NCBI GenBank assembly: GCA_016840085.1
Contig: JAEOTA010000008.1
Location: forward strand, 1 to 52,605
Origin: Promethearchaeota archaeon
Lineage (GTDB): Archaea; Asgardarchaeota; Lokiarchaeia; Sigyniarchaeales; SOKP01
Length of the DNA: 52,605 nucleotides
Direction: 5' to 3'
Shown here: piece after piece, positions 16,843 through 50,556 of the stretch
Layout: each line of letters opens with the position of its first letter
Numbering within the stretch: position 1 is the stretch's first letter
Made by a program: the position numbers and the translations under genes
The notes under the pieces: generated by a model
The model's database searches: none
What the model was told of the DNA's origin: nothing
Seen by the model: the letters and a program-made list of their open reading frames with translations, nothing else

Positions 16843-17091
16843 TATTAATTTGGTTTTTTATTATAAGTCATTTTTATAGGATTAAATGAAATCCTAATAT
16901 TTTTTTTATTGGAATAAATTTAAATAATGGTTCTTAATATTAAATTAATTGAAGATTAGATTCAAATCTCTTTAAAAATAATACAATTCGATTAGAAGAA
17001 TGAATTCTAATAGGAAGAATTATATTAGAATTTATTCTACATTTCCTGTTATTAATATAGATTTAATGGAGTAAATTATAGTTTATAATAG

Positions 17092-18249
17092 GTGTTATTA
17101 ATTTCAAAAGATATAAGTAAAAATAAAATTGATAAACAGATTCTAAGAAAGCTAGAAGGGGTATATCGGAAATTATTTGAATCTTCACCAAATATGATTA
17201 TTTTAATTGATAGTAATGCAGAAATAATAGATATTAATACTCAAACTTTAGAATTTTTAAATCTAGAAAAAGATATTATTATTGGGAAGGATATAAGTGA
17301 GTTATCCTTTATTCCAGCTGAAATACTACAAAATTTAAAAAAAAAATTCAGAAAACTACTAAATAACGGTTATATAAATTCAATCGAATTAAAACTTGAA
17401 AGCCTACGAAATGAGACAAAATGGATGAATATCCAAGGATCAATTGTACAAGTAAAAAATAAGACTCTTATTCAGCTTATAATTCAAGATATTACCACTA
17501 GAAAGAAGGCTGAATTTCTAATTAGAAAAGAAGTAAAAAAACTTAAAGATTTAGATCAGAAAAAAACTGATTTTGTAAATCGTGCGTCTCATGAATTAAA
17601 AACTCCGATTTCTTCGATATATGGGGCATGCCAATTGCTTTATAAATTATATAAGGATGAATTGAATGAAGAAGCTTCAGAATTATTAAAGATTGCATTA
17701 AGAAGCGGAGCTAGACTTAAAAATTTAATCTATAATTTATTTGATGTGTCAAAAATAGATTCTTATAATTTTAAATTAACTAAACATAGAATTGATTTAA
17801 CCAAAATATTTAGGGATTGTATAGAAGATTTATCTTACCTTATTAACAATAATCGATTAAAAGTTTCATTAGATTGTCCAAAAGAAATATTTATAGTAGT
17901 GGATCAATTTAAAATAGAAGAAGTAATTTCAAATATTCTCATGAATTCAATTAAAAATACTCCATCTGGAGGGAAGATATTTTGCAATTTGAAAAGAAAA
18001 GACAATTATATTGAAGTTTCTATTAAAGATACGGGCATTGGAATTACAAAAGAAGAAATGAAAAAATTATTTACAAAATTCGGAAAAATTGAGAGGCGTA
18101 GTTTAAACGTTGAAATTGATAATGAAGGTTCAGGTCTAGGGCTATACCTATCAAAAAAAATTATTACTTTACATGAAGGTCAAATATGGGCTGAATCAGA
18201 AGGTAGGAACAAAGGTACTAAAATTATTTTTACTTTACCATTAAATTAA
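17092..18249 (+). CDS. PAS-domain histidine kinase (soluble)
   Basis: YRKLFESSP PAS domain; H-box ASHELKTP; N-box NILMNSIK; DTGIG; GSGLGL. Confidence 0.95.
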   Translation: MLLISKDISKNKIDKQILRKLEGVYRKLFESSPNMIILIDSNAEIIDINTQTLEFLNLEKDIIIGKDISELSFIPAEILQNLKKKFRKLLNNGYINSIELKLESLRNETKWMNIQGSIVQVKNKTLIQLIIQDITTRKKAEFLIRKEVKKLKDLDQKKTDFVNRASHELKTPISSIYGACQLLYKLYKDELNEEASELLKIALRSGARLKNLIYNLFDVSKIDSYNFKLTKHRIDLTKIFRDCIEDLSYLINNNRLKVSLDCPKEIFIVVDQFKIEEVISNILMNSIKNTPSGGKIFCNLKRKDNYIEVSIKDTGIGITKEEMKKLFTKFGKIERRSLNVEIDNEGSGLGLYLSKKIITLHEGQIWAESEGRNKGTKIIFTLPLN

Positions 18250-36836: not shown

Positions 36837-37784
36837 ATGTTTTATAAATTATTAAAAATACAAATAAAAACCTTCATTTGTTCCATTCTAATGTTGAGTC
36901 AGAATAATTATAAAATAGGAATATTTTATGGGGTTGGTCCAGATACAGAGATGCTCGCGCAAAAATTTGCAGGCAATCTCATAAATAATGAAGAATTCTG
37001 TAAAGCTTGTGAAGATTTAGAACAAAATGTAAAATGTGATAAATGTAGGGAACATTTAAAGAGTTTTGCGAGCTCTATTTACTTTTACGAGAAAATTGGT
37101 GAAGATATTCCTGAGTTTGTTGAAGACTCAACGGAATATCTACCAAAAAATTTGCCACCTGTCGATTTTTTGTTGGTTGTAGGTATCCATCAAGATTTAC
37201 TTTTAGACCTTCCTAATTATCTCAAGGATAAAGGTATTAAAGCAGTTATAGTTCCAATTGAAGATCCTAAATGGGTGCCTTCAGGACTGCAATCAATGAT
37301 CTTAGAAGAATTCGAGAAATATGGCATCCAAGCAGCATTTCCTAAACCATTTTGTGCATTAAGTAAGGACTTAAATGAATATAATAATATTGGTTTTCAT
37401 CTCACTAAAGAACGTCATTATATTAATGAATTCATAGATTATTTCAAAATAGGCGTTCCAATTATCTCTTTATTACTAAGTAAAGACGGGGAATCAATTG
37501 AAGATAACTGCGTACTACAATCAGCCCCATGTGGGAGCAGTTATTATGTTTGCCAACAACTCAAATCAAAGTATTTCAAAAATGATAAAAATGGAGAATT
37601 ATCATTAAATGAAAGAATTAGTAAAGCTCATCATGCATATCCTTGTAATGCTTCAATGGATCAAGATAATATATTGAAAGATTCAATTCTTCATGTCGGA
37701 GGGTATTTGATTAGAAATGCAATTAGAAGAGAGTTAAACCTCGAAGAACAAGAAGGTCAAAAACTTGTATACGTAATAAAGTGA
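36837..37784 (+). CDS. DUF166-family protein
   Basis: HQDL, AVIVPIE, FPKPFCAL, SAPCGSSYYV, HHAYPCNASM..D..LH..G. Start may be 36891. Confidence 0.8.
   Translation: MFYKLLKIQIKTFICSILMLSQNNYKIGIFYGVGPDTEMLAQKFAGNLINNEEFCKACEDLEQNVKCDKCREHLKSFASSIYFYEKIGEDIPEFVEDSTEYLPKNLPPVDFLLVVGIHQDLLLDLPNYLKDKGIKAVIVPIEDPKWVPSGLQSMILEEFEKYGIQAAFPKPFCALSKDLNEYNNIGFHLTKERHYINEFIDYFKIGVPIISLLLSKDGESIEDNCVLQSAPCGSSYYVCQQLKSKYFKNDKNGELSLNERISKAHHAYPCNASMDQDNILKDSILHVGGYLIRNAIRRELNLEEQEGQKLVYVIK
37555..37784 (+). repeat. Direct repeat A, copy 1 (3' end of DUF166 gene)
   Basis: Aligns without gaps to 40021-40250 (offset 2,466). Confidence 0.95.
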
Positions 37785-38077
37785 AGTTATACCTATTTTT
37801 TGATATATTTTTTGAAATCTTGAGCGTACAAGGGCACTCAAGCACAAAAGTTCTCGGTTGGGACATAATGCGGTGGAGTTGATCTCTACTGAGAAGGTGA
37901 TAGAACTGAAAAAAGTCCAATCATCATCAATAAGAACGATTTTTTTCCCCGGAAATTTACCATACTCTCTTCAAAGCAACACCTTATTATTGAAAATTTA
38001 GATTCCTATAAGATAAAATTAGAATACAGCATGAGCACGTTTTTTAAGTTTTTCTTTTAACATGTTTATAACAAAAA

Positions 38078-39136
38078 TTGGTCTACGGAAGAAACTTATT
38101 CAAATTAATTTTGATTATAAATATGAATGAATCTATAAAAGAAGAAGCACAAATAATATATTCAGATCCTAATCAATTCAATGAGAATAAATATTCAACT
38201 GAATTTATCATCAAAGTTCAAGATCTAGAAAAGTCGTTCAATAGTATTAAAGCAGTTGATGGTATTAGTCTTAAAGTTCGTAAAGGTGAATTATTTTCAC
38301 TTTTAGGTCCTAATGGAGCGGGGAAATCTACAACAATTAGAATGCTTACCACTGTATTAAAACCCTCCAATGGAGATGCAAGAATCACGGATTATAGCCT
38401 AATAAAAGAAAAAAATAAAATTAAACCACTTATTGGCGTATGTCCTCAAGAAAATGTTGTTTTTGAAGCCTTAACAGCAGAGGATAATGTGGAATTTGTT
38501 GGTCGTATGCATGGAATGGATCCTGCTGACATAAAAAAACGCACAAAAACTTTGTTAGAGAAAATGAATATTGCAGGACGAAAAAAGTCAGCAAAATCCT
38601 TTTCTGGGGGAATGAAAAAACGATTAAATATTGTAATGAGCCTTATTCATCAACCACAGATTCTATTTCTTGATGAACCAAGCGCCGGGTTAGATCCTCA
38701 AGCAAGACGCCTTGTATGGGATTTTATCAAGGATCTTAAAAATACAGGAATGACAATCATCCTTACTACCCATGATATGGTAGAGGCTGATGTGTTAAGT
38801 GATCATATTGCAATCATAGATCATGGTAAAATCATTGCTTCTGGAACCTTAGAAGAACTAAAAAGGAGTTCGCATAACGGAAATATTCTTGAATTTAGTT
38901 TCTCTTCCAAAGAAGAGCTCATTCAAGCAAAAAACAAGTTAGAACAACTAGATAAAGTGAAAAAAATCACAGAAATGGAGAACAATAAATTAATTATCTC
39001 CTTTACTGGAGGAGTTAAGACTTTTAAACGAGAAATTTTACGCGAGATAGAATCGTTTAAAACCTTACACTTTAGGGAAGATTCTCTTGAAGATATATTT
39101 TTAAAATTAACAGGTAGGGGGTTACGTGATCAATGA
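38078..39136 (+). CDS. ABC-2 type exporter ATP-binding subunit
   Basis: GPNGAGKST, FSGGMKKRL, LDEPSAGLDP, TTH, SLEDIFLKLTG. Start likely ATG at 38123. Confidence 0.95.
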   Translation: MVYGRNLFKLILIINMNESIKEEAQIIYSDPNQFNENKYSTEFIIKVQDLEKSFNSIKAVDGISLKVRKGELFSLLGPNGAGKSTTIRMLTTVLKPSNGDARITDYSLIKEKNKIKPLIGVCPQENVVFEALTAEDNVEFVGRMHGMDPADIKKRTKTLLEKMNIAGRKKSAKSFSGGMKKRLNIVMSLIHQPQILFLDEPSAGLDPQARRLVWDFIKDLKNTGMTIILTTHDMVEADVLSDHIAIIDHGKIIASGTLEELKRSSHNGNILEFSFSSKEELIQAKNKLEQLDKVKKITEMENNKLIISFTGGVKTFKREILREIESFKTLHFREDSLEDIFLKLTGRGLRDQ

Positions 39137-39936
39137 ACACGATTGATTTAAAAGCGTGGTATATCGCCAAGAAGAATGTAAAAGAAAAACTTAAGAATTT
39201 TGGCTCGATGTTTTGGACTATTGCATTTCCAATCATGATGTTGATTGTCTACAAGTTAGCCTTCAGCGAAAGTGGAGATTACATGATAAATGGATTAACA
39301 ACTTTTGACGTAGAATTTCCAGGAATAGTTGTATATACGATTGGCATGTCCACAGTAACAAGTGCAGTTATGTTCTCAATGAGTAAAAAAGATGGAACAT
39401 TAGAGCGTATAGATTCAATGCCTGTGAGTCGTGGAAATTTATTTTTAGGAGCTGTAATATCTGAGACCATTTTCATGAATCTCCAACTCATTTTAATATT
39501 TGGATTTGGATATGGGGTTTTAGGGGCTCATTTTGAACTCGCATTGATGCCGCTTGGATACCTGATTGCAATGATTTATGGTGTTGCAGCAATCGGATTG
39601 GGTCTTATTATTGCGAGTTTTCTTAATACTCCTGAAGGAGCGAATGGATTTGCAATGTTGGCTCACATGTCCTTAATGTTTGTATCAGGGTCATTTTTCC
39701 CCTTGGATAATGGGGGCGTGTTTTTTACACCACAATATTGGGTCAAACAAGTCTATCTCCAATTGACAGTAGTTGGGGATTCCTTCTCTGATTTGTTGTA
39801 TAGTGGTACTATAATTACTCCCACTTCTGAAGCCACCTGCATTCCCATATGGGGTGGAATCCTGATGATATTAGCATTCACTGCCACACTTATTATTTTA
39901 GGAGTTAAAATCTTTCAGAAAAAGACTACACTTTAA
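39133..39936 (+). CDS. ABC-2 type exporter permease
   Basis: About 6 TM; FPGI, KKDGTLERI..PV, FVSGSFFP; ATGA overlap with the ATPase. Confidence 0.92.
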   Translation: MNTIDLKAWYIAKKNVKEKLKNFGSMFWTIAFPIMMLIVYKLAFSESGDYMINGLTTFDVEFPGIVVYTIGMSTVTSAVMFSMSKKDGTLERIDSMPVSRGNLFLGAVISETIFMNLQLILIFGFGYGVLGAHFELALMPLGYLIAMIYGVAAIGLGLIIASFLNTPEGANGFAMLAHMSLMFVSGSFFPLDNGGVFFTPQYWVKQVYLQLTVVGDSFSDLLYSGTIITPTSEATCIPIWGGILMILAFTATLIILGVKIFQKKTTL

Positions 39937-39937
39937 A

Positions 39938-40010
39938 TTCTTTATCTTTTTTTTCTTTTTTTTAAACTATTTTATTATTTCAATATTTTTTTAACTTTTT
40001 TTATATTTTT
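39938..40010 (+). terminator. Oligo-T tracts after permease
   Basis: Multiple long T runs directly after the stop codon. Confidence 0.5.
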
Positions 40011-40020
40011 ATACTTTCTA

Positions 40021-40250
40021 AACAGTTAAAATCGAAATATTTCAAGAATGGTAAAAGTGGTGAACTTTCATTGAATGAAAGAATAAGTAAAGCACATCAT
40101 GCATATCCTTGTAATGCCCCAATGGATCAAGATAATATATTGAAAGATTCAATTCTTCATGTCGGGAGGTATTTGATTAGAAATGCAATTAGAAGAGAGT
40201 TAAATCTTGAAGAGGAAGAAGGAGAAAAACTAGTTTATGTTATTAAATGA
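40021..40250 (+). pseudogene. Direct repeat A, copy 2: orphan 3' end (75 codons plus stop) of DUF166 gene
   Basis: QLKSKYFKNGKSGELSLNERISKAHHAYPCNAPMDQDNILKDSILHVGRYLIRNAIRRELNLEEEEGEKLVYVIK*; the 5' part of the gene is missing. Confidence 0.93.
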
Positions 40251-40417
40251 TTTTTTGGTATAACTTATTATTTTAAATGCATATTTTTCCAGTTTTTTAT
40301 GAAAAACAGTCGATTAAAGATTTTTTAAACCTTAAACATTTTTTCACTATATAATTTTATTCAACTATAGTATCTTTAAATTTTAAAAAATTTATCATCA
40401 TTAGATAGGATGAAAAC

Positions 40418-42064
40418 GTGTCTAGTCATATTATTAATTCAGAAGAAATTAAAGAAAAGATTTCTTTAGATAAAATTCACTCCATTCAGGGTAAAAATAG
40501 AATTTTCACGGATTTTTCAACATACCTTATGGATGAAAGTAAACTAAATGGAGTTGCAGATTGGCTATTTTTTCCAAAATCTGAGGCAGAAATTGTTTCA
40601 ATATTAAAATTCTTACTAAAAAATAAAATCAGGACGTATATCAGTGCAGCTCGAACAGGAATTGTGGGTGCATGTGTCCCCTCTTCCGGCACTGTTTTAT
40701 CAACCGAGAAGATGAATAAAATTATTGGAATTGGTTTAGATAATAATAAAGGGAATTATTTCATTCGTGTTGAACCAGGAGTTACTCTGAACGAAATAAA
40801 TGATACCTTGAAAAAGAAGGAAATTGAAAATGTTGAAGAACTAACTCCCCGTGCTAAAAAAAAGTTTAAAGAGTCAAATAAAGAATTCCATTATCCTGTT
40901 GATCCAACAGAGATGTCTGCAACAATTGGTGGAACTGTAGCGACGAATGCCTCGGGGGCTAGAACCTTGAAGTATGGTCCTACAAGAGAATGGATTAAGG
41001 GATTAAGAGTTATTTTATCTTCCGGTGATATTTTAGATATTCAACGTGGAAAGTATTTTGCTTCAAATAAAGGTTATTTTGGTATAAGTAAATCGGATGG
41101 AAACAAATTGCAATTTAGGATTCCAAATTATATATTCAACACAATAGTGAAAAATGCTGCTGGAATTTATTCTAAACCGAATATGGATTTTATTGATTTA
41201 TTTATTGGAAGCGAAGGAATCTTAGGTGTCATTACACAGATTGATATTTGGATTATTGAAAAACACCCTTTAATATATAATATTTTATTCTTTAATTCTG
41301 AAGAAGAAGCAATAAGCTTTGGTGAATTTATCCGAAATAATAAGATTCTATCTCCGGAATTCATAGAATTTTTTTCAGGTGAAGCATTAGATCTTTTGAA
41401 AAAGGTTCAAAATGAAGATCCTAGTTCAATAGGTATGCCTCAAATTCCAATACATGCTAAATCAGCAATATTCTTTGATTTGCCATATTCTGAAGAAAAA
41501 ATAGATAAGGTTTTTAGTGAATTAAATAGTATAGCAGAAAAATATAAAATTAATTTATCAGATGGCTGGTCAGGCTATGAAAATCAAGATTTTGCTCGAT
41601 TTAAACATTTTAGACATGCATTACCTGAAAATATTAATGCAATAATTGCTCAACGCAAACAAGAATTTCCCCAACTACATAAATTAGGAACTGATATGAG
41701 TGTTCCTGAAAAATACTTTAGAGAAATGATGAAATATTATCATTCTGTTTTACAAAATGCAAATTTAAAATATCTTATTTTTGGTCATATAGGAGATAAT
41801 CACGTGCACGTTAATATTCTCCCAAAAAATATGCAAGAATTAAGATTAGGGGAAAAAATCTATGAAAAATTTGCAAAAAAAGCAGTAGAATACGGGGGAA
41901 GTATATCTGCAGAACATGGGATTGGAAAGATAAAGAGAGAATATTTAAAAATCATGTATAGTCAGAAAGAACTCGATGAAATGCGTCTAATTAAAAAAAC
42001 ACTCGATCCATCTTTAACTTTAAATTATGGTAATATTATTAGTTTTGACGCGGAGGAGGAATAG
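40418..42064 (+). CDS. FAD-linked oxidase/dehydrogenase (GlcD/D-lactate dehydrogenase family)
   Basis: VEPGV, YPVDP, ATIGGTVATNASG, GSEGILGVIT, GHIGDNHVHVN, SAEHGIGK. Confidence 0.92.
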   Translation: MSSHIINSEEIKEKISLDKIHSIQGKNRIFTDFSTYLMDESKLNGVADWLFFPKSEAEIVSILKFLLKNKIRTYISAARTGIVGACVPSSGTVLSTEKMNKIIGIGLDNNKGNYFIRVEPGVTLNEINDTLKKKEIENVEELTPRAKKKFKESNKEFHYPVDPTEMSATIGGTVATNASGARTLKYGPTREWIKGLRVILSSGDILDIQRGKYFASNKGYFGISKSDGNKLQFRIPNYIFNTIVKNAAGIYSKPNMDFIDLFIGSEGILGVITQIDIWIIEKHPLIYNILFFNSEEEAISFGEFIRNNKILSPEFIEFFSGEALDLLKKVQNEDPSSIGMPQIPIHAKSAIFFDLPYSEEKIDKVFSELNSIAEKYKINLSDGWSGYENQDFARFKHFRHALPENINAIIAQRKQEFPQLHKLGTDMSVPEKYFREMMKYYHSVLQNANLKYLIFGHIGDNHVHVNILPKNMQELRLGEKIYEKFAKKAVEYGGSISAEHGIGKIKREYLKIMYSQKELDEMRLIKKTLDPSLTLNYGNIISFDAEEE

Positions 42065-42209
42065 AAAAATCATTGAATTTGACAAAAAATCTATATAAAA
42101 TAAAAAATTTTTAGAAATCTCCTTAATAGATATCATTCTTAAAGCATTGATTTTATAGTACATAAATGTTATGTTCTAATGTGAGGAAATATATCTTTCA
42201 TTTAGGTGA

Positions 42210-44369
42210 TTGGTAATTACTATTATAGAATGTTCAACATCTTTTTGTGAAGAAAATGAGGAGGAATCAGAGGAAGAATCTTTTTTTGAAGAGAATTTTT
42301 GGTATTTCTTAATTCCTGCTGGAATTTTGCTTGGAATTTCAATCTTTTTAGAAATTGTATTTGAAGAAGTTTTAATATCTCAAATATTAGCTTTCTCTTC
42401 AATTTTCCTTTCTGGTTCAGGTGTTGTAAAAGAAGCAATCGAAGATATTAGAGATAAGAAAATTACTGCAAATCTATTAATGATGATTGCTGCGATAGCC
42501 TCATTTTTCATTTTACATGGACAAGAAGGAGCAACAGCTTTATTTTTATATGCAATAGCAGAGAGATTAGAAGAGATAACCAGTGATAAATCAAGGAATG
42601 CAATAAAAGAATTGCTTGAATTAGCTCCTGATTATGCTTTACTTAAATCTGAAAATAAATATAAAAATGTTCCATCACAAGAAGTTAAAATTGGAGATAT
42701 AGTTGGGATAAAGCCAGGGATGAAAGTTCCATTAGATGGAAAAATAGTAAAGGGTAGTTCATACTTTGATGAAAGTGCAATAACAGGCGAATCTGTTCCA
42801 GTATTTAAGAAAGAAGGTGAAGAGATATTTGCAGCAAGTTTAAATACAGATAGTTTTGTTGATATCGAAGTAGTAAGAGAAAGTTCGAATACAATTGTAG
42901 CTCAAATCGCTCAGAGTGTGAAAATTGCTCAACAAAATAAAAGTGAACATGAAAAATTTATTGAAAAATTTGCTAAATACTATACTCCAATAATTCTTAT
43001 CTCATCTATTTTAGTAATGGTTATCCCTCCTCTGTTTGGATTAGACTTTTATAATTGGTTCTATCGTGGATTAATCTTATTAGTAGTTTCTTGTCCTTGC
43101 GCTCTCACATTATCTACACCCTTAGCAAATATTGCTTCTTTAACTAAGCAAGCTAAAGAGGGGATACTTGTTAAAGGAAATAAATTTATAGAAAAATTAC
43201 AAGATATTGAAGTTTTTGCATTTGATAAGACCGGAACACTTACTGAAGGTAAACTAAAAGTTTTTGATATATATGCATATAATGGCGCAATTAAGTCAGA
43301 GATAATAAGCATAGCCGCTAGTTTAGAGGCTCTTTCAGAACATCCTATTGGAAAGGCAATAGTCAAACAAGCAAAAGAGATGGATTTACCTTTTCATAGT
43401 GTTGATAATTTTGAAATAGTAAAAGGGAGAGGAATAAAAGGAAAAATTGATAATGAAATGTTTTATGTTGGTAGTCAAAAATTCTTTGAAAATTTGAATT
43501 ATGAAATTCCAATTCATGACATTATTAAGGTTGAAAATTTAGGAACTATTCCAATTTTATTAGGAAATGAGAATCAACTATTAGGAATTATTACGATTAG
43601 AGATGTATTAAGAGTTACAGCCCCTGTCTTAATAAATGGTTTAAAAAAAAGAGGTTATGAAACTGTGTTAATATCTGGTGATAATCAGAAAATATGTGAT
43701 TCAATAGGGGCATGTTTAGATATAGATCATGCTTATGGTGAACATTTGCCTGACCAAAAACTACAAGAAATCCAAGAATTAAAACATCAATACAAAGGAG
43801 TCGCAATGGTCGGAGATGGAATCAATGATGCCCCTGCTTTAGCTCTTTCTGATTTAGGAATCGCAATTGGAGCTTCAGCTACAGATATTACGTTGGAAAC
43901 CGCAGATATCATCATTATTGGAGATGATTTAAACAAGTTACTTACTTATGTTGACATTGCTAAAAAAACAAATAAAAAAATAAAACAGAATATCTGGACC
44001 TCTATTATAGTAAAGATTTCATTTGCTATTCTAACGGTTCTTGGCTTCATGACCCTCTGGCTTGCGGTGGGAATCGGAGACATGGGGGTCTCAATCCTTG
44101 TCCTCTTTAATAGTCTGGCAATCTTTAGATATAAATTCCTATACAAGGAACTCTCGAATGAACAATTAGAAAGTGAAGCAAAATTGATTATTTGTCAGAA
44201 TTGTGAAACTAAAGACATTATACCGCAACATCATGGACGAGATATGGTTAAGAAAGGAGATAAATTAGTTTGTTGGAAGAACATCCTTAGCAGTGAAGAA
44301 TTGGAGACCTGCGATGAGGAACTCCCGCTTCACTGTCCCTATTGTCAAGAAAAATTAGAATTAAAATAA
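42210..44369 (+). CDS. P1B-type heavy-metal ATPase (Zn/Cd/Pb, ZntA/CadA-like)
   Basis: TGES, SCPCAL, FDKTGTLT, SEHP, GDGINDAP; Lys in the penultimate TM and DMG in the last TM (P1B-2 pattern). Confidence 0.92.
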   Translation: MVITIIECSTSFCEENEEESEEESFFEENFWYFLIPAGILLGISIFLEIVFEEVLISQILAFSSIFLSGSGVVKEAIEDIRDKKITANLLMMIAAIASFFILHGQEGATALFLYAIAERLEEITSDKSRNAIKELLELAPDYALLKSENKYKNVPSQEVKIGDIVGIKPGMKVPLDGKIVKGSSYFDESAITGESVPVFKKEGEEIFAASLNTDSFVDIEVVRESSNTIVAQIAQSVKIAQQNKSEHEKFIEKFAKYYTPIILISSILVMVIPPLFGLDFYNWFYRGLILLVVSCPCALTLSTPLANIASLTKQAKEGILVKGNKFIEKLQDIEVFAFDKTGTLTEGKLKVFDIYAYNGAIKSEIISIAASLEALSEHPIGKAIVKQAKEMDLPFHSVDNFEIVKGRGIKGKIDNEMFYVGSQKFFENLNYEIPIHDIIKVENLGTIPILLGNENQLLGIITIRDVLRVTAPVLINGLKKRGYETVLISGDNQKICDSIGACLDIDHAYGEHLPDQKLQEIQELKHQYKGVAMVGDGINDAPALALSDLGIAIGASATDITLETADIIIIGDDLNKLLTYVDIAKKTNKKIKQNIWTSIIVKISFAILTVLGFMTLWLAVGIGDMGVSILVLFNSLAIFRYKFLYKELSNEQLESEAKLIICQNCETKDIIPQHHGRDMVKKGDKLVCWKNILSSEELETCDEELPLHCPYCQEKLELK

Positions 44370-44623
44370 AATTTACATCTCACTGTCAATTTCGATAATA
44401 TATATAAAATCTTAAAAGATTTTATACAAAGAGTAATCCATTTATTTCTATATATCGTAATATATATTTTTTAAGGATTTCAATTTCAGCTCTTTTTGTT
44501 ATTTTAGTTTTTAGATTTAATTTAATTTTATAGGATACTTATAAATAAATAAGAAATTAATAAAAAAATAAAAAGCAAATAAAAAAATAGAAAATAAAAC
44601 ATTTTACAAGAGGAAACAAAAAA

Positions 44624-46159
44624 ATGGAGACAATTAGAGAACCAGCAAGAAATATTCCCGTCCGTGATAAAGTAGATGTGATAGTTGTTGGAGGAGGGCC
44701 AGCAGGAATAGGAGCAGCTTTAGCTTCTGCTCGGATTGGTGCTAAAACTGTTCTAATAGAACGTTTTGGTGCCCTGGGTGGCCAACAAACACAGGGTTTA
44801 AATTCAGTTTTCTCGCGCGTTGATCCAGAATTACATAATGGAATTGTGCAAGAAATACTCCAGCGCCTTATGAATGGTGGTGCTATGAGAAAACCGGATG
44901 AAAGACGAATGCGTCAGAATCCTATGAGAACACACTTTATTGCTCGCTATGGTGAAGAACACATACCAAAACGACTACTTAACACGAATGTAGGATGGTG
45001 GGGAGGAGAAAAGATCTTTGACCTCGAATATTATAAATATCTCCTCGATACCATGATGCAAGAAGCTGGAGTTAGGATGTATCTTCATTCATTTGCTGCT
45101 AGTACGATAAGAGATGGAAATACACTTAAGGGGATCATTACGGAGGGAAAAGAAGGCAGGCGTGCAATTCTAGGTAAAGCTATAATTGATACTACTGGTG
45201 ATGGGGATATTGCATGGAAATGCGGAGCACCAGTAATGGATGACACAATACCTTTAGGTCGACGTAAGGGTCGTCATATGGGATCATTAACAGCGTTCTA
45301 CCTTGGTGGTGTAGATCTTGGAAAATGGTTGGAATACAGGAAAGCTCATATGGATGAATGGGGTCAAATGTATGGGGGGCATAGAATGGTTAGAGAAGCT
45401 CGAAAGAAAGGGGCATACATCAGAGGAGACAGTATCATCCTCTCTCCGTTGCATAGTGTTCATGGTGGTGGAAGGATATGGGTGATGAATCCAATGTATG
45501 GTCCAAGAGAAGATAATCATTTATGGATGGCTGAAGAGCAAACTAACCTTGAAGTAAGCCTTAGGAAACAGGCTTTTGCTGTTCAGAATGTATTAAAACA
45601 GCAAATCCCAGGCTTTGAAAAATGTTTTGTTGAAAAAACCGCTAATTACCCAGTAACAACTATGCACAGAATTATAGGAGATCATGTTTTAACAGTAGCT
45701 GAAATGCGTGAGGGTAAAACTTTTGAGGATTCAATTGCTATAAATAACCAACCTCCGGATATCTGGGAAGTTGCAGGCAGGTTTGGTTATGAGATTCTAC
45801 CTCATGACATTCCTTATCGTTGCATAGTATCAAAAGAAGTGGATAATCTTCTAGCAGCTGGCACAACAATTTCATGCGGCCTTTTCACCAATGGTGGCTT
45901 GAGATATTGCACTCCGAGTATGTGTAACGGCCAAGCAGCAGGCACAGCGGCTGCTTTAGCTGCTAAAAATAATATAAGCCCTAAAGATCTAGATGTAAAC
46001 TTGTTGAGAGATACTCTTCGTGAACAAAGTGCGCATGTTAGCGTTAATGATGTACCAGAAGAAGCCATCGAGCCTTATAAGTTCATGAAAAAGATATCAA
46101 AAGTAAATAAGAAGAATTCAGAGGTCAACATAGATGAAGAAGAAATAGGCAAATATTAA
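44624..46159 (+). CDS. FAD-dependent oxidoreductase
   Basis: DVIVVGGGPAG, IDTTGDGD, IPYRCIV..NLLAAG, GQAAGTAAALA. Confidence 0.9.
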   Translation: METIREPARNIPVRDKVDVIVVGGGPAGIGAALASARIGAKTVLIERFGALGGQQTQGLNSVFSRVDPELHNGIVQEILQRLMNGGAMRKPDERRMRQNPMRTHFIARYGEEHIPKRLLNTNVGWWGGEKIFDLEYYKYLLDTMMQEAGVRMYLHSFAASTIRDGNTLKGIITEGKEGRRAILGKAIIDTTGDGDIAWKCGAPVMDDTIPLGRRKGRHMGSLTAFYLGGVDLGKWLEYRKAHMDEWGQMYGGHRMVREARKKGAYIRGDSIILSPLHSVHGGGRIWVMNPMYGPREDNHLWMAEEQTNLEVSLRKQAFAVQNVLKQQIPGFEKCFVEKTANYPVTTMHRIIGDHVLTVAEMREGKTFEDSIAINNQPPDIWEVAGRFGYEILPHDIPYRCIVSKEVDNLLAAGTTISCGLFTNGGLRYCTPSMCNGQAAGTAAALAAKNNISPKDLDVNLLRDTLREQSAHVSVNDVPEEAIEPYKFMKKISKVNKKNSEVNIDEEEIGKY

Positions 46160-46244
46160 ATAACTAAAACTACTACTGTCTAGAAAAATTAGACTTGATA
46201 TAATATTTTTGAAAATCAAATATTATCTATAATCTGTCATAAAA

Positions 46245-46718
46245 TTATAATTTTAAACTCATTACCAATTCATCACCTATTTCACTCCCAGTATAATCGA
46301 AACCAAATTTTTTATAAAATACTCCAGCATTTCCATCTAATTTAGAATGACTTAAAAGAAGTTCCTTTGCGTTTGGTCTACTTCTTACATGATTAATTAT
46401 TAATTTCATTGCTTTTTTTCCATAACCCTTTCCTTGATATTTGGCATCTATCATAAATCTCCAAAGAAAATATGATGGACGGTGATTTGGATTAGATTTA
46501 TACCTTAATAAGGAGTCACTTATCATAACAAAACCAATTGGCTTATTATCTGCATAGATCGCTCGGAACCAAGCATCTTTATTAAAATGAGCTTGTGCTA
46601 TTGATATAGCATTAGGAGCGACTAAATTTCTCTGCTCTGGTTTGACATCTAATTGTAGAATTGACATTAAATTAATTTTTGTAATCTTTTTTAAAGATAT
46701 TCTTAGAATTTCATTCAC
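46245..46718 (-). CDS. GNAT acetyltransferase (spermidine/spermine N-acetyltransferase-like)
   Basis: VAPNAISIAQA, LWRFMID..YQGKGYG, FYKKFGF. Confidence 0.9.
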   Translation of the reverse strand: MNEILRISLKKITKINLMSILQLDVKPEQRNLVAPNAISIAQAHFNKDAWFRAIYADNKPIGFVMISDSLLRYKSNPNHRPSYFLWRFMIDAKYQGKGYGKKAMKLIINHVRSRPNAKELLLSHSKLDGNAGVFYKKFGFDYTGSEIGDELVMSLKL

Positions 46719-46868
46719 CCGTTTAACTCTTTCAATTCTTTCAACTCTTTCAATTCTTTCAATTCTCTAAGATTATCAAATTTTTTATCTGATACGGCTC
46801 TTTGAATATATATTTTATCAAGCTCAATTACTTTTCCTAATAGTTCCAAAGCACTCGTGTGATTATTT
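46715..46868 (-). pseudogene. Direct repeat B, downstream copy: orphan 3' end of the TPR gene 48706-50556
   Basis: NNHTSALELLGKVIELDKIYIQRAVSDKKFDN vs NNHTSALELLGKVIELDKTYIQRALSDKKFDN; 46772-46868 aligns to 48748-48844 (offset 1,976). Confidence 0.92.
46722..46766. repeat. 9-bp tandem repeat x5 (TTCAAYTCT; encodes ELK repeats on minus strand)
   Basis: tttaactct ttcaattct ttcaactct ttcaattct ttcaattct. Confidence 0.85.
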
Positions 46869-46905
46869 ATCTCATTGATAATAGAAATCATATTCATCTT
46901 TTTTT

Positions 46906-48492
46906 CTATCCAAAGGTTAGATATTTAGCTGAGGTGATATGAGGTAGTCTTGAGAGTTGGGCGAGTACATCATCAGGTACAAAATTATCCACATTGATAA
47001 GCGATATAGCAATACCGCCTAGTTCTTTACGACCCAGCTGAAATCCTGCAATGTTAATATCTTTTTCGCCAAGAAATGTTCCCACTCGACCAACAACGCC
47101 AGGGACATCCTGATTTTCTAGCATTAACATTCCTCCTGACAATTCAGCCTCAATTGGAAAAAGATTGATTTTTATGATCTTTGAGATCTTCCCAAAAATG
47201 GTTCCCGATACTGATGTTTTACCTTTTTCAGTGATAGTAATTACACGAATTAAACTCATATAATTTTCTGCTTTCTTTGACTTTGTCTCTGTTATCTTTA
47301 TTCCCCGTTCCTCAGCTATCATACGCGCATTAACTAAGTTGACCTCTTCAGTCTGGTGTTGAAGAATTCCCTTTAAGACCGAGATAGTGAGTGGAGCAAT
47401 CGTAAGGTTTGAGGCATCACCTAGATACTCCACACGGAGTTCATTGAGTGGATTGTCGAGAAGTTGTCCATGAAATGATCCTAATTTTTCACAAAGAGAG
47501 AGGTAAGGTTGCAGTATTGGGAGTAATTCCGCTGCCACAGAAGGAAAGTTAATTGAATTGCGTATTATGCCTTTTTTAAGAAAATCACTAATTTGTTCTG
47601 CAATTAATACAGCAACCTTTTTTTGAGCTTCATTGGTAGAAGCACCCAGATGAGGAGTAAGAATTACATTAGGATGTTTATATAAAAAAGTATCTGAGGG
47701 GGGTGGTTCTACCGGGAAAACATCAAGTGCAACTCCTTTAACATGATCAGATTCAAGGGCATTTAATAGATCAGACTCATTAATCAATGCACCTCGTGCA
47801 CAATTTATAATATAAACCCCTTTTTTCATCAGTGCAATTGTTTCAGCATTTATCATACCCTTAGTCTCAGGTGTGAGAGGTGTATGATATGTAATGAAAT
47901 CAGATCGAGCATAAATTTCATCTAGGTTGACTGGTTCTACCCTTAATTTTAATAAATCTTCCTTGGAAACATACGGATCATATCCTAAAACAACCATTTT
48001 AAGACCTAAGGCACGATCAGCAACTATTTTTCCAATTCTTCCAATACCGATGATCCCCAGAACTTTATCAGTGAGTTCAGTTCCTACAAAATTTTTCTTC
48101 TCCCATTTCCCCTCCTTCATAGAAGCAGTAGCTTGGGGTACTTGACGTGCTAGAGCAAACATTAAAGCAATCGTGTGTTCTCCTGTAGTGATGGTATTAC
48201 CTCCTGGGGTGTTCATCACAACAACACCACTTTTTGTAGCAGATTTTATATCAATATTGTCTGTACCAGACCCAGCACGACCTATTACTTTCAAATGAGA
48301 AATTTTATTAAACATTTTGGCAGTTACTTTGGTAGCTCCTCGGAGAGCAATACCATCATAATGATCAATAATAGTAGCTAATTCTTCTGGAGTTAATTTC
48401 CCTTTAGCATCCACTTGAATTCCCTCTCGAGTGAATACCTCATCCCCCGCTTTATGAAGATTATCGAGAATAAGTATTTTTAAGTTTTCCAT
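46906..48492 (-). CDS. serA: D-3-phosphoglycerate dehydrogenase (long form with ACT domain)
   Basis: GRAGSGTDNID, NTPGGN, GIGRIG, INCARG, LDVF..EP, TPHLGAST.EAQ; C-terminal NQDVPGVVGRVG..NIA. Confidence 0.95.
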   Translation of the reverse strand: MENLKILILDNLHKAGDEVFTREGIQVDAKGKLTPEELATIIDHYDGIALRGATKVTAKMFNKISHLKVIGRAGSGTDNIDIKSATKSGVVVMNTPGGNTITTGEHTIALMFALARQVPQATASMKEGKWEKKNFVGTELTDKVLGIIGIGRIGKIVADRALGLKMVVLGYDPYVSKEDLLKLRVEPVNLDEIYARSDFITYHTPLTPETKGMINAETIALMKKGVYIINCARGALINESDLLNALESDHVKGVALDVFPVEPPPSDTFLYKHPNVILTPHLGASTNEAQKKVAVLIAEQISDFLKKGIIRNSINFPSVAAELLPILQPYLSLCEKLGSFHGQLLDNPLNELRVEYLGDASNLTIAPLTISVLKGILQHQTEEVNLVNARMIAEERGIKITETKSKKAENYMSLIRVITITEKGKTSVSGTIFGKISKIIKINLFPIEAELSGGMLMLENQDVPGVVGRVGTFLGEKDINIAGFQLGRKELGGIAISLINVDNFVPDDVLAQLSRLPHITSAKYLTFG

Positions 48493-48705
48493 TTCCTCTC
48501 CTTTTTTCTGTTTTAAATCCCAATTTAAATAAGTACTATTTATAATTTACTGTATATCTAAATCCTAATGATTGATAGAATAAAATTTGTTCATTTAAAT
48601 TTATTACTACAAGAAGGATTAGAAATCAATTTTTTAAGAATTATATAGGTGATTTAATTGCCTCTTTTGTAAAGAAGAACAGAGCTAAACTCAGTAGTTT
48701 AGATT

Positions 48706-50556
48706 TCATTTACTTATTAATTCTTTAAATTCTTTTAAGTCTTTTATATTATCAAATTTTTTATCTGATAATGCTCTTTGAATATAAGTTTTATCAAGTT
48801 CAATTACTTTTCCTAATAGTTCCAAAGCACTCGTGTGATTATTTTTTAGTGATTCAAGACAGGCAATATTATAAAATATTTCACTATTAGTAGGGTCAGC
48901 TTTCAGTGATTTATTAAGATAGTGTTCAGCTTTTTCCAAATTTTCTAAATTCATAAATAAGTTGCCAAGATTGTTCTGAACATCAGCAACATTGTATAAA
49001 TAGGTTGTAGGGTCCTGTTTTGCATATATTTTAAAGATTTTTAGTGCTCCAAGAAACATTTTCTCTGCCTCCTCAAATTTCTGTAATCTGAGGTAGACAT
49101 TTCCAAGACAATTGGTTATTATAGCAACATTATGCATATATATTTGTGGATTTTGTTCTGCTAATCGTTTGGAAATTTTTAATGCTTTCTGGTACCTCGG
49201 TTCTGCCTCCTCAAATTTGTTTATACTTGCATACAAGTCTCCAAGATCTAATAGAGTAAGGACTAACTCAGGTAAAACTTGATCGGGATATTTTTTAGCA
49301 ATATTTTTTTTAATTTTTAATGCTTCGAGATGCATCTTTTCAGCATCTTCAAATTTACTTAATTCGCTATATATCATTCCAAGATTACTCTGAGTCTTAG
49401 CGATATCAACTAAATACATGTCGTAACACATTTTTGCTAATTTTCTATAACTATCTAGAGAATCAAGGGATCCATCTTGAATATCTTCCAATAAGTCTAA
49501 ATCAATGCAGACGTTTCCCAAATCACTAGTGATTGAGGGCTCTTCAGGTAAGTATACATCGTAGTATTGTTTTAATACCTCGTTATACGTCTTTAAATCA
49601 TCAAGATATGACTTTTCTGGATCTTCATATTCTTTTAAATCAAAGTCAGGAGAATGCAGATCATAATATTGTTTCTTTAACTCTTTATAGGCATTCAAAG
49701 CATCAAGATAATTCTTTTCTGCATCTTCAAATCGCTTTAAGTCAATATATAGTGTTCCGAGGTTTTTTTGAGTCGCAGCTACATAGGGTAAATATATTCT
49801 ATAATATTGTTTAGCCAATTTTTTATATATGTTTAAAGCGTTAAGGTAAATCTTCTCTGCTTCCTCAGATCTGCCTATGGAAGAAAATAGATTTCCAAGT
49901 GCTATTAAAATTGGCGCTTTATATTTATCTTCAAGTACCATTAATGTTTCTGCAATATCAATTAATCTTTTATATCGATAATCAACTTGATCTATTTTAT
50001 TAACAACTATAAGAAATTCATTAACCAACTTCTCAGAAGGATTTAATTTTGAGTTATGAAAAAGAATCTCAATATCGTCAGAAAGATTATCTCCATATTT
50101 TTTTTTCTTTATCTCATAATATAATATTGCTTTTTCATGAGATTCTTCATCTGTTAAACTTTCTAAAAAATTTTGAATTTGTAAAGATATGAATTGGTAT
50201 ATTTCTTTTTTTTTCCTTTTTTTCTTATGTATTATACCAGTATTTACTATATCGTTGAAAATTTCCACAATATTTGGCAATATATAGCTGGTTTCAACAA
50301 TTTTCCTATCAATATTAGTTTCCACATCTGTATTTATCACAGATAATTTCTTAAGTAATTCTAATGCGTCTGAATTTGATGAGAAAATCTCCTCAATAAC
50401 TTTCTTATAAAGATTGTGTACTTCTGGTTCATCAAAAGGCTTTAATTTATCGAAATTTATACTTTGGTAATTTTTTCTAATTATTTTTATAATATCAGAA
50501 TATTCCTCAGGAATCTTTTTTATAAATTCTAATACTTTATTTGGTAGTCTTGGCAT
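48706..50556 (-). CDS. TPR protein (long kinesin-light-chain-like repeats) with N-terminal winged-helix-like region
   Basis: Repeated A.TQ.NLG.LY..L.RFE.AE..YL.AL units; final YNIACLESL TPR. Confidence 0.9.
   Translation of the reverse strand: MPRLPNKVLEFIKKIPEEYSDIIKIIRKNYQSINFDKLKPFDEPEVHNLYKKVIEEIFSSNSDALELLKKLSVINTDVETNIDRKIVETSYILPNIVEIFNDIVNTGIIHKKKRKKKEIYQFISLQIQNFLESLTDEESHEKAILYYEIKKKKYGDNLSDDIEILFHNSKLNPSEKLVNEFLIVVNKIDQVDYRYKRLIDIAETLMVLEDKYKAPILIALGNLFSSIGRSEEAEKIYLNALNIYKKLAKQYYRIYLPYVAATQKNLGTLYIDLKRFEDAEKNYLDALNAYKELKKQYYDLHSPDFDLKEYEDPEKSYLDDLKTYNEVLKQYYDVYLPEEPSITSDLGNVCIDLDLLEDIQDGSLDSLDSYRKLAKMCYDMYLVDIAKTQSNLGMIYSELSKFEDAEKMHLEALKIKKNIAKKYPDQVLPELVLTLLDLGDLYASINKFEEAEPRYQKALKISKRLAEQNPQIYMHNVAIITNCLGNVYLRLQKFEEAEKMFLGALKIFKIYAKQDPTTYLYNVADVQNNLGNLFMNLENLEKAEHYLNKSLKADPTNSEIFYNIACLESLKNNHTSALELLGKVIELDKTYIQRALSDKKFDNIKDLKEFKELISK
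48721..48844 (-). repeat. Direct repeat B, upstream copy (3' end of TPR gene)
   Basis: Matches 46745-46868; 5 mismatches over the 97-bp core by hand count. Confidence 0.92.

Follow-up and report, generated by a model that had tools for sequence, protein, structure and literature searches.

At two loci on opposite strands, this stretch of DNA repeats one layout: an intact gene, X, is followed by a spacer, by cargo and then by an orphan second copy of the 3' end of X. How could such units have been built? The stretch, here called the window, comprises 52,605 nt (positions 1-52,605, forward strand) of contig JAEOTA010000008.1 from assembly GCA_016840085.1 of a Promethearchaeota archaeon (GTDB lineage Archaea; Asgardarchaeota; Lokiarchaeia; Sigyniarchaeales; SOKP01). 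The genome studied, G000, is a MAG of 89 contigs from sediment runs; its contigs carry C-numbers, the window contig being C40. We compared it with relatives G001-G024, and those compared at both loci are of the same genus. An earlier, sequence-only reading had proposed that DNA from related Lokiarchaeia is added here by host recombination. Our results suggest that the units are probably scars of host recombination, a form of 3'-end displacement by the homology-anchored addition of related-lineage DNA.

Architecture of the two units

In unit 1, on the plus strand, X1 (36837-37784) encodes a 315-aa DUF166 protein. The terminal 230 nt of this gene, stop codon included (37555-37784), recur ungapped at 40021-40250 with 87% identity and a spacing of 2,466 (blastn E 7e-74). 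Between the copies lie a 293-bp spacer (37785-38077) and cargo 1 (38078-39936), an ABC ATPase (38078-39136) and an ABC-2 permease (39133-39936) on the same strand as DUF166. The T-rich tail of the cargo (39937-40016) ends at a non-homologous junction with the orphan, the gap being 80-84 bp, and gave low-complexity matches only in a genome search. Orphan 1 (40017-40250) consists of the last 77 DUF166 codons with the frame kept, and still matches the C-terminus of PF02593 (E 6e-8). Downstream lies Y1, an FAD-linked oxidase (40418-42064, plus strand).

Unit 2 lies on the minus strand. X2 (48706-50556) encodes a 616-aa TPR protein whose 3' end carries one repeat copy. The repeats span 126 nt (46743-46868 and 48719-48844) with 90% identity and a spacing of 1,976; blastn extends them to 46730-46868 and 48704-48844, at 88.7% (E 2e-42). 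A 213-bp spacer of the type found in TPR-serA layouts (48493-48705; 89% to G004 over 124 nt) separates X2 from cargo 2 (46906-48492), a serA gene for D-3-phosphoglycerate dehydrogenase with an ACT domain, on the same strand as the TPR gene. After a gap of 8-37 bp comes orphan 2, a 60-aa ORF (46715-46897) with homology to the TPR 3' end over about 46730-46876 and a 9-nt (KEL) tandem expansion at its end. The GTG start of Y2, a GNAT acetyltransferase (46245-46718), overlaps the orphan's TGA stop by 4 nt, the same overlap that GNAT has with the end of the full TPR gene in relatives.

Both repeat pairs were confirmed to be far above chance expectation. The sequence-only reading had described this layout with units of 2,466 and 1,976 bp, spacers of about 200-340 bp and less than 90 bp between cargo and orphan, and the genes and distances bear it out. 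It had also taken the repeat copies for diverged alleles with an identical or near-identical tract, which agrees with identities of 87% and about 89-90%; the identical tracts measure 47 and 37 nt in the first unit and 45-46 nt in the second. These tracts could be either att cores or crossover or conversion tracts.

A third unit may lie between the two. A 719-aa anchor gene (42210-44369, plus strand) is conserved in every relative with the locus examined, and variable gene slots flank it on either side. One holds a 511-aa gene (44624-46159, plus strand), found among the relatives examined only in G004 and G018, which may be the cargo of such a unit. Just beyond it, 30 of 36 nt at 46173-46208 (plus strand) agree with the end of the anchor gene, its final codons and stop (44339-44374), at a spacing of 1,834, a weak hint of a third orphan.

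Alleles, relatives and recurrence

A DNA-level self-comparison of the genome found about 17 further short direct-repeat pairs with one copy at a gene stop and an intergenic orphan downstream, and a protein-level comparison found about 27-36 examples. C-terminal orphans downstream on the same strand numbered 36, whereas the mirror classes contained 5, 13 and 11 (binomial p ~2e-7). Self-alignment, which had been put forward as a check, thus returned many examples biased towards downstream same-strand 3' ends. Displaced-end scars are unusually common in this genome, with about 30 in all, and their target genes are ordinary ones such as DUF166, TPR, aroD, AdoHcyase and Roadblock. The cargo lies on the strand of X in both window units, as had been claimed, but across the genome it often runs opposite to X, and a shared strand is therefore not a defining feature of the layout.

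Genome-wide, the copies of a repeat differ by 10-22% along 60-340 nt. Pooled over 1,174 codons, the differences between copies fall 187/95/460 on codon positions 1/2/3, and this excess at third positions (460 of 742) indicates that the orphans diverged as parts of working genes. The copies are best read as diverged coding alleles rather than duplicates decayed in place. Orphan 1 follows this pattern, with 31 nt differing from X1 (7/2/22 by codon position); it also carries S-to-P and G-to-R changes at positions invariant in five aligned relatives. In the window, each copy ends in codons of the allele type tied to its own downstream neighbour, and the last codons and downstream flank of X2 are of the serA-linked type.

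X1 is itself a mosaic. Its first 450 nt are 92-97% like G003/G010, while its last 400 nt show 92-96% identity to G018 and 84-91% to G024. In its 3' third, the attached repeat copy has the allele type that accompanies the ABC pair in G024 and G023, and the spacer, unique within the genome and relatively G+C-rich, is shared only with G024 (80% over 230 nt). The nearest match of orphan 1 (90%) is in G018, where the site is empty. It is the attached copy rather than the orphan that resembles the closest relative, G024 (21:6). Within the repeat, the 5' half of the G023 sequence matches the orphan and its 3' half the attached copy (permutation p 0.01). The two copies look like reciprocal chimeras, which would be expected from a single crossover.

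The relatives supply both of the arrangements that had been predicted. Empty sites, with DUF166 directly before the FAD oxidase, its original neighbour, occur in G013, G018 and G021, and with TPR directly before GNAT in G001, G003, G005, G007, G008 and G009. Donor-type layouts, with DUF166 and the ABC pair, occur in G023 and G024, and with TPR directly before serA in G002, G004, G018 and G023. The ABC pair occupies two other loci in relatives (G002, G004, G012, G018), and contig C41 of the genome studied has the clean empty site for one of these.

The clearest of the other units lies on contig C85 and is empty in at least 15 relatives. Informative sites favour G024 for its orphan (44 of 63; p 0.002) and G023 for its attached end (40 of 57; p 0.003), while identity to G024 drops from 85-90% to 79-80% at the start of the repeat. 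The attached 3' end and cargo of this unit are foreign from the first base of the repeat. Another unit, on C35, is empty in at least 11 relatives; its cargo matches a G001 contig at 98.5% identity, although the DNA next to it at this locus is only about 66% identical between G000 and G001. Some other units, on C4, call for a more complex history.

Known elements and other explanations

The sequence-only reading had noted neither integrase, transposase or rep gene nor terminal inverted repeats, and this stands: the cargo proteins of the two window units have no Pfam match to an integrase, transposase or Rep family, and no inverted repeats bracket either unit. An integrase-mediated integrative element was rejected as Pfam gives no recombinase in any cargo ORF of the two units, and a transposon or insertion sequence as there is neither transposase nor terminal inverted repeat and the flanking repeats are 140-230 nt long and diverged. 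A homing-endonuclease mobile ORF does not fit, with LAGLIDADG, GIY-YIG and HNH absent from both window units; nor does a diversity-generating retroelement, as the cargo has no reverse-transcriptase family and the mismatches, which such an element would confine to adenines of the template copy, are of all types, mostly at third positions. Nor is either locus a polymorphic toxin locus (rhs, CDI, T6SS), the genes being DUF166, TPR, ABC transporter, serA, GNAT and FAD oxidase. An integron or other site-bounded cassette array was rejected because both spacers match nothing else in the genome. They have no Rfam match and no fold signal, and blastx against the genome's own proteins gave nothing significant. 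Archaeal integrons were reportedly described by Ghaly et al. in 2022. Like site-bounded cassettes, our units are small, integrase-free packets of accessory genes that vary between close relatives, but such cassettes have one recurring bounding site, whereas our units are bounded by a repeat of the end of the local gene itself.

The layout that does correspond is C-terminal displacement: an intact X with a replaced 3' end, added genes, and the displaced end joined to its old neighbour. Such displacement is described for rhs genes (Jackson et al. 2009, cited in PMC5361080), and T6SS effector-immunity modules undergo sequential displacement by homology-facilitated illegitimate recombination (Kirchberger et al. 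2017, PMC5361080). There, the incoming piece brings a new 3' end with one or more downstream genes and uses the conserved upstream part as its homologous anchor, and the former 3' end, together with its partner gene, ends up orphaned further downstream. Repeated events stack such orphans, and no integrase takes part, all as in our units. Those are polymorphic toxin genes, whose new tips share no sequence with the old ones and where selection favours retention of the old immunity genes; our units involve ordinary genes, ends that are alleles of one sequence, any accessory cargo and about 30 scars. A native orphan with a foreign attached end is clear in the C85 unit, while the ends in unit 1 are reciprocal mosaics and the copies in unit 2 are equally like G024 (88%).

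One other explanation, which we consider unlikely, is that the units are remnants of mobile elements: integrative elements that carried a 3' end and have since lost their integrase, or homing-endonuclease cassettes with a cut-resistant end whose nuclease was lost or acts in trans. The layout equals attL and attR around a 3'-end-restoring island. As with such an element, or a circle integrated Campbell-type, the insert lies between direct repeats and the target is not disrupted. It also equals the 'gene hybrids' that mobile endonuclease ORFs leave in fungal mitochondria (Allomyces atp6; Glomus atp6, atp9, cox2 and nad3), where a foreign C-terminus and inserted ORF strand the native C-terminus, the native end matching a close relative and the inserted end being diverged, mostly at synonymous sites (PMC3630166). 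Each window repeat pair holds a long identical tract, the two breakpoints in C85 coincide, as in the repair of one double-strand break, and one of about 25 other units encodes a LAGLIDADG_3-like protein. However, in the fungal case the inserted ORF itself encodes the driving homing endonuclease, whereas the window units carry a transporter pair and serA and encode no nuclease or recombinase. The cargo of the other units is diverse, made up of unrelated ordinary genes without integrase or transposase, and about 30 target genes would require about 30 specificities. The repeats are largely diverged rather than one identical core, no spacer sequence is repeated elsewhere in the genome, and no circle was observed. 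The whole genome has only two PF00589 (tyrosine recombinase) matches, on C49 and C19, that on C19 broken, and none on C40.

There is also a slim chance that the layout is an assembly artefact, in which two haplotypes or species, one with X and cargo and the other with X and its neighbour Y, were strung into one contig, the 'orphan' being the start of the second haplotype. Serial placement would give exactly the observed layout, and the genome is a MAG with an estimated contamination of 7.6%. An intact ABC pair together with an intact FAD oxidase is found at the unit 1 locus in no other genome examined, and the closed same-genus genome G006 has no such orphan in 800 kb, where about five would be expected at the density of the genome studied. 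Against this, the genome contains no N and thus no scaffold joins. The copies differ by 10-22%, a species-level difference too large to be collapsed in an assembly graph, and from assembler principles a de Bruijn graph should have no edge from the end of the cargo into X. The 5' edges of the orphans are sharp and the first identical run varies from 4 to 46 nt with no constant k-1, unit 1 being mismatched from its first bases. Orphans of the same kind occur in independent assemblies: G023 (1-Mb contig) shows an AdoHcyase orphan of its own and an array of two stacked orphans, has one orphan at the same gene as that on C83 and reaches a density of three per 800 kb, and G001 has a TPR orphan (50/56) after GNAT. 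In G024 the FAD oxidase is cut to a 50-aa C-terminal remnant directly after the ABC pair, so both genes were once together in that lineage.

The decay of an old local duplication, a tandem X around the cargo whose second copy lost its 5' part, or long target-site duplications, is very improbable: cargo is flanked by direct repeats, and the unit 2 copies are near-identical over their first 100 nt, with states seen in no relative, their few differences (2/2/4) lack third-position bias and relatives side with the intact copy, but two full-length tandem copies, which the sequence-only reading had named as pointing to such decay, were found in no relative examined, clean empty sites are many, divergence genome-wide is of the coding type, each copy ends in the allele type of its own neighbour and the foreign copy in C85 is the attached one.

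A possible route of gene addition

Addition of related-lineage DNA by host recombination, as originally proposed, is supported by the recurrence and 3' bias of the units, the empty and donor sites and the allelic divergence of the copies. Related Lokiarchaeial lineages would carry differing accessory genes downstream of one conserved gene X. A segment made up of another lineage's own X end and adjoining genes would be joined to the resident chromosome by host homologous recombination inside X, its far end being joined without homology. X would stay complete, its 3' end now new or chimeric, and the accessory genes would be gained, while the other version of the 3' end would be left behind next to the gene that it originally preceded. 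The process would call for neither a specific site nor an integrase or transposase encoded by an element.

Either a circle that integrated by one crossover (Campbell type) or a linear piece would fit. The linear piece would be added by homology-facilitated illegitimate recombination (HFIR) or by break repair copied from a diverged donor. Against this account, no donor circle, microhomology or junction intermediate was seen, two junction scans of metagenome contigs gave no match, and the exact DUF166 protein of G000 is on record solely from the window contig. In the window units the incoming half may have been either the cargo or the orphan with its downstream gene.

The type of scar is already known; what sets these units apart is its occurrence in ordinary genes, with any accessory cargo, in an Asgard archaeon and at high frequency. 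We tentatively raise a broader possibility, though it is rather doubtful: that Lokiarchaeia routinely gain genes without a recombinase, with the 3' end of any conserved gene able to dock small foreign pieces, events stacking at one site and the diverged repeats letting a block loop out as a circle to dock again. If true, this would be a general, self-renewing cassette system operated wholly by host recombination.

Two units in the window

The window spans the entire contig C40 of G000, the genome under study (4.68 Mb in 89 contigs, 29.5% G+C), whose DUF166 protein has close database matches bearing the names Promethearchaeota or Lokiarchaeota. A self-search of the whole genome returned both of the diverged direct-repeat pairs that the sequence-only reading had placed at gene 3' ends around cargo, at the spacings it gave. 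The first pair (37555-37784 and 40021-40250) runs ungapped for 230 nt at 87% identity, with a spacing of 2,466 bp and an E-value of 7e-74. The second (46743-46868 and 48719-48844) covers 126 nt at 90% identity (141 nt at 88.7% by blastn), with a spacing of 1,976 bp and an E-value of 2e-42.

In unit 1 an intact DUF166 gene, ending in the first repeat copy, is followed by an ABC ATPase, an ABC-2 permease, a stranded copy of the DUF166 3' end (the orphan) and a FAD-linked oxidase. Unit 2, on the opposite strand, has a TPR gene, a 213-bp spacer, serA, a TPR orphan and a GNAT gene. Orphan 1 is still recognisable by score as a DUF166 C-terminus, and its S-to-P and G-to-R changes, at positions invariant across five aligned relatives, fit with a recent relaxation of selection. 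As first described, the cargo proteins of both units gave no match to integrase, transposase or replication families, and no inverted repeats were found at the unit ends. No recurring site was found in the spacers, nothing in them being repeated in the genome, and blastx gave no trace of a former protein; Rfam gave one weak match, elsewhere (RAGATH-7, E 0.46), and the fold was not significant (z 0.27).

Several smaller features lie in the same region. About 200 nt of the spacer that follows the DUF166 stop, ahead of the ABC pair (37800-37997), look relatively G+C-rich by eye against the 29.5% of the genome, occur once in G000, have a counterpart in G024 only (80%), and gave no Rfam match, fold signal or protein remnant. 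A 9-nt tandem repeat (GAATTGAAA/GAGTTGAAA, reading KEL) is expanded at the extreme end of the orphan TPR ORF, before the GNAT start (46722-46771), against one copy in the intact TPR gene. Inside the TPR gene, six copies of a 138-nt periodic repeat (48926-49900, 60-73% identical) are normal TPR-unit repetition with no bearing on the displaced ends. The last codons and stop of a 719-aa gene (44339-44374) recur with 30 of 36 nt identical at 46173-46208, directly after a variable 511-aa gene, and may be a third, weak unit with a much shorter displaced end within the same 11 kb.

Allelic copies and the arrangement of relatives

Pooled over 25 ungapped pairs (1,174 codons), attached ends and orphans differ at 187 first, 95 second and 460 third codon positions; for unit 1 the figures are 7, 2 and 22, with 7 of 77 residues changed. 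This bias towards third positions indicates that most of the divergence arose while both copies belonged to working genes. On this pattern attached end and orphan are alleles of different lineages, as had been proposed, rather than the product of a duplicate decaying in place. Over the final 50 nt of the unit 1 repeat, the attached copy is of the type linked to the ABC pair in the relatives G024 and G023, and the orphan is of the type linked to the FAD oxidase in G018 and G021. In unit 2 the last codons of the intact TPR gene, its flank and the spacer are all of the serA-linked type.

Same-genus genomes share a backbone at this locus of g536, PTPS, DUF166, a first variable slot, the 719-aa gene, a second slot and TPR. 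The first slot is vacant in five genomes. In G013, G018 and G021 it contains only the FAD oxidase, which makes it the empty site for the ABC pair. G023 has just the ABC pair there, and G024 the ABC pair with a 50-aa remnant of the FAD oxidase; the pair and the oxidase gene occur together, with the orphan between them, in G000 only. In the second slot GNAT immediately follows TPR in six genomes and serA does so in four, while G012 has neither. Relatives thus hold both the empty sites (DUF166-FAD oxidase and TPR-GNAT) and the orphan-free donor layouts (DUF166-ABC pair and TPR-serA) by which the sequence-only reading could be judged. Two full-length DUF166 or TPR genes in tandem, the arrangement that would have counted against it, were present at these loci in no genome examined.

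The original neighbours are recognisable in detail. In the GNAT-type genomes with coordinates read (G001, G005, G008 and G009), the TPR end and the GNAT start share 4 nt, and the stop of orphan 2 overlaps the GNAT start in just the same way. In G024, the closest relative, the last 50 FAD-oxidase codons remain 62 nt past the ABC pair (6006-6155 of the extracted locus L030 on contig C22; 60% amino acid identity), and are the scar of a deletion at the same slot. The ABC pair lies at another locus in G002, G004 and G018, for which G000 has a clean empty site (C41, 23433-23450), and in a third context in G012 (91% identity), which brings its genomic settings within the genus to at least three. G001 has a TPR orphan (50/56) directly after GNAT, which makes GNAT itself the 'cargo' there.

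Recurrence in the genome and in relatives

The self-alignment suggested in the sequence-only reading was productive. Self-blastn found about 17 further short direct-repeat pairs in G000 (60-230 nt, 82-95% identical, 0.6-10 kb apart) in which one copy has its end no more than about 30 nt from a gene stop and the other is intergenic, downstream and on the same strand. A more sensitive protein-level survey, in which each ORF protein was compared with the genome within 15 kb, found 36 same-strand, downstream C-terminal fragments. The mirror classes were smaller (5 N-terminal downstream, 13 N-terminal upstream and 11 C-terminal upstream), an excess of p ~2e-7 against equal classes.

The claim that cargo lies on the strand of the intact gene holds for units 1 and 2 but not genome-wide, where either strand is used. 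Cargo includes a DUF4238 pair, an ABC transporter, an Rce1-like protease with an ArsR regulator, a TIR membrane protein, RibD_C, URO-D, a C25 peptidase, a Ras-like GTPase, an FMN reductase, an Ogg glycosylase, a carboxylesterase, a MazE-PIN pair and a ferredoxin. PADLOC, run on unidentified cargo proteins, gave a TIR-like match only. No integrase was present in the cargo of any of the roughly 25 units checked, and the sole nuclease-like cargo among them is one protein of 471 aa bearing a LAGLIDADG-like domain (C19, 67016-68431; L165:2017-3432). The whole of G000 has two tyrosine-recombinase matches, one of them broken.

The clearest unit outside the window is a 4.9-kb block on contig C85, a 336-nt copy of a gene end plus four genes. 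It is missing in at least 15 relatives, where the gene adjoins the same downstream neighbour. The orphan sides with G024 at 44 of 63 informative sites and the attached end with G023 at 40 of 57, and identity to G024, 85-90% ahead of the repeat, is about 80% from its first base onward; the breakpoint test on informative sites within the contig was not significant. In this unit the stranded end is native, and the attached end and cargo are foreign. The C85 orphan (95958-96290, 111 aa) is an intact ORF starting exactly on an in-frame ATG, and several further orphans begin at or near ATG, so that small proteins might be made from some of them.

Other units are less easily polarised. The C35 unit is empty in at least 11 relatives, and its cargo (15874-17526; the Rce1-like protease and ArsR-type regulator) is 98.5% identical to a G001 contig (L058, G001:C255), against only about 66% between G000 and G001 for the neighbouring DNA of the locus; this identity implies either very recent exchange or a vector common to both. 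The C19 unit, at an AdoHcyase gene, is empty in G003 and G018, and in G023 an AdoHcyase orphan of its own follows different cargo. For both units the informative sites give no clear polarity. G023 also carries a stacked array (L183, G023:C25, 857-4339) of gene, 1-kb insert, orphan, Ras-like GTPase and second orphan, and C83 of G000 has a one-orphan version with a GTPase 64% identical. The C82 unit has no informative downstream match in five relatives, and the C4 unit, whose cargo lies on the opposite side of the intact gene in G023 and G008, does not fit one simple event.

Could the units have been created by the assembly? No orphan of this kind was found in 800 kb of the closed congener G006, where G000 carries about 6 per Mb, and the exact junction patterns of units 1 and 2 had no match in metagenome contigs. 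However, G000 contains no Ns, the run of identity at the start of an orphan has no fixed length, the copies differ at the level of species, and similar orphans are present in G001 and in G023 (3 in 800 kb of a 1-Mb contig), one of them at a gene common with G000; the oxidase remnant beside the ABC pair in G024 argues the same way. We consider an artefact improbable, and a de Bruijn bubble was rejected in view of the junction structure and the absence of N. Sampled words were recovered at 85-91% in four marine-sediment runs of one study and at 23-28% in two mangrove runs; small word shares in other runs are no evidence of habitat.

Mechanism and meaning

The recurrence of the units, their allelic copies and the empty sites support the proposal that gene ends with cargo are added by host recombination. 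The parents would be lineages differing in the genes downstream of the same gene, with a homology-dependent junction inside that gene and a sharp, non-homologous one where the cargo ends and the orphan starts. The intermediate could be a circle with gene end and cargo that entered through a single crossover; a linear molecule with homology anchoring one of its ends and illegitimate joining of the other; or a break in the gene, repaired by copying a diverged donor and then end joining. Any of the three would give the observed product.

Along the unit 1 repeat, the affinity of G023 changes from the orphan over the 5' half to the attached copy over the 3' half (permutation p 0.01); an opposite trend in G018 is not significant (p 0.16), and the repeat centre is identical. 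The G000 DUF166 gene is itself a mosaic of a G003/G010-like and a G018-like part. For this unit the pattern leans towards a crossover within the repeat. The C85 unit, with both breakpoints at one base, agrees with break repair or with crossing over at the repeat edge. Unit 2 has about 100 nearly identical nt with states found in no relative, implying very close parents or later conversion. In units 1 and 2 the transferred piece may be either the cargo or the orphan with its neighbour.

Diversity-generating retroelements, transposons and integrons were rejected for want of their defining features, and Aloposons and the described Asgard integrated elements are unlike these units in bearing integrases and targeting tRNAs or motifs. 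The closest known processes are the displacement of C-termini at rhs loci and of T6SS effector-immunity modules, which has been attributed to homology-facilitated illegitimate recombination (PMC5361080), and the 'gene hybrids' that endonucleases create in fungal mitochondria (PMC3630166). The G000 case is distinguished by its ordinary genes, by ends that are alleles, by the lack of a nuclease in units 1 and 2, by its archaeal host and by its high frequency. They are a variant, with new features, of a known recombination scar and not a new mobile element.

Some 30 scars in a single genome, and stacked examples among its relatives, suggest that recombination at 10-22% divergence is frequent and is combined with non-homologous joining. 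By this route accessory and defence genes would be gained with no need of mobile-element enzymes, and the target gene would stay unbroken. Orphans are prone to mis-annotation as small genes, and can serve as flags for recently acquired genes and recombination hot spots. Asgard archaea are the closest prokaryotic relatives of eukaryotes, and the scars are a readable record of their gene uptake from other species, each preserving the gene that served as homology, the incoming piece and the prior arrangement.
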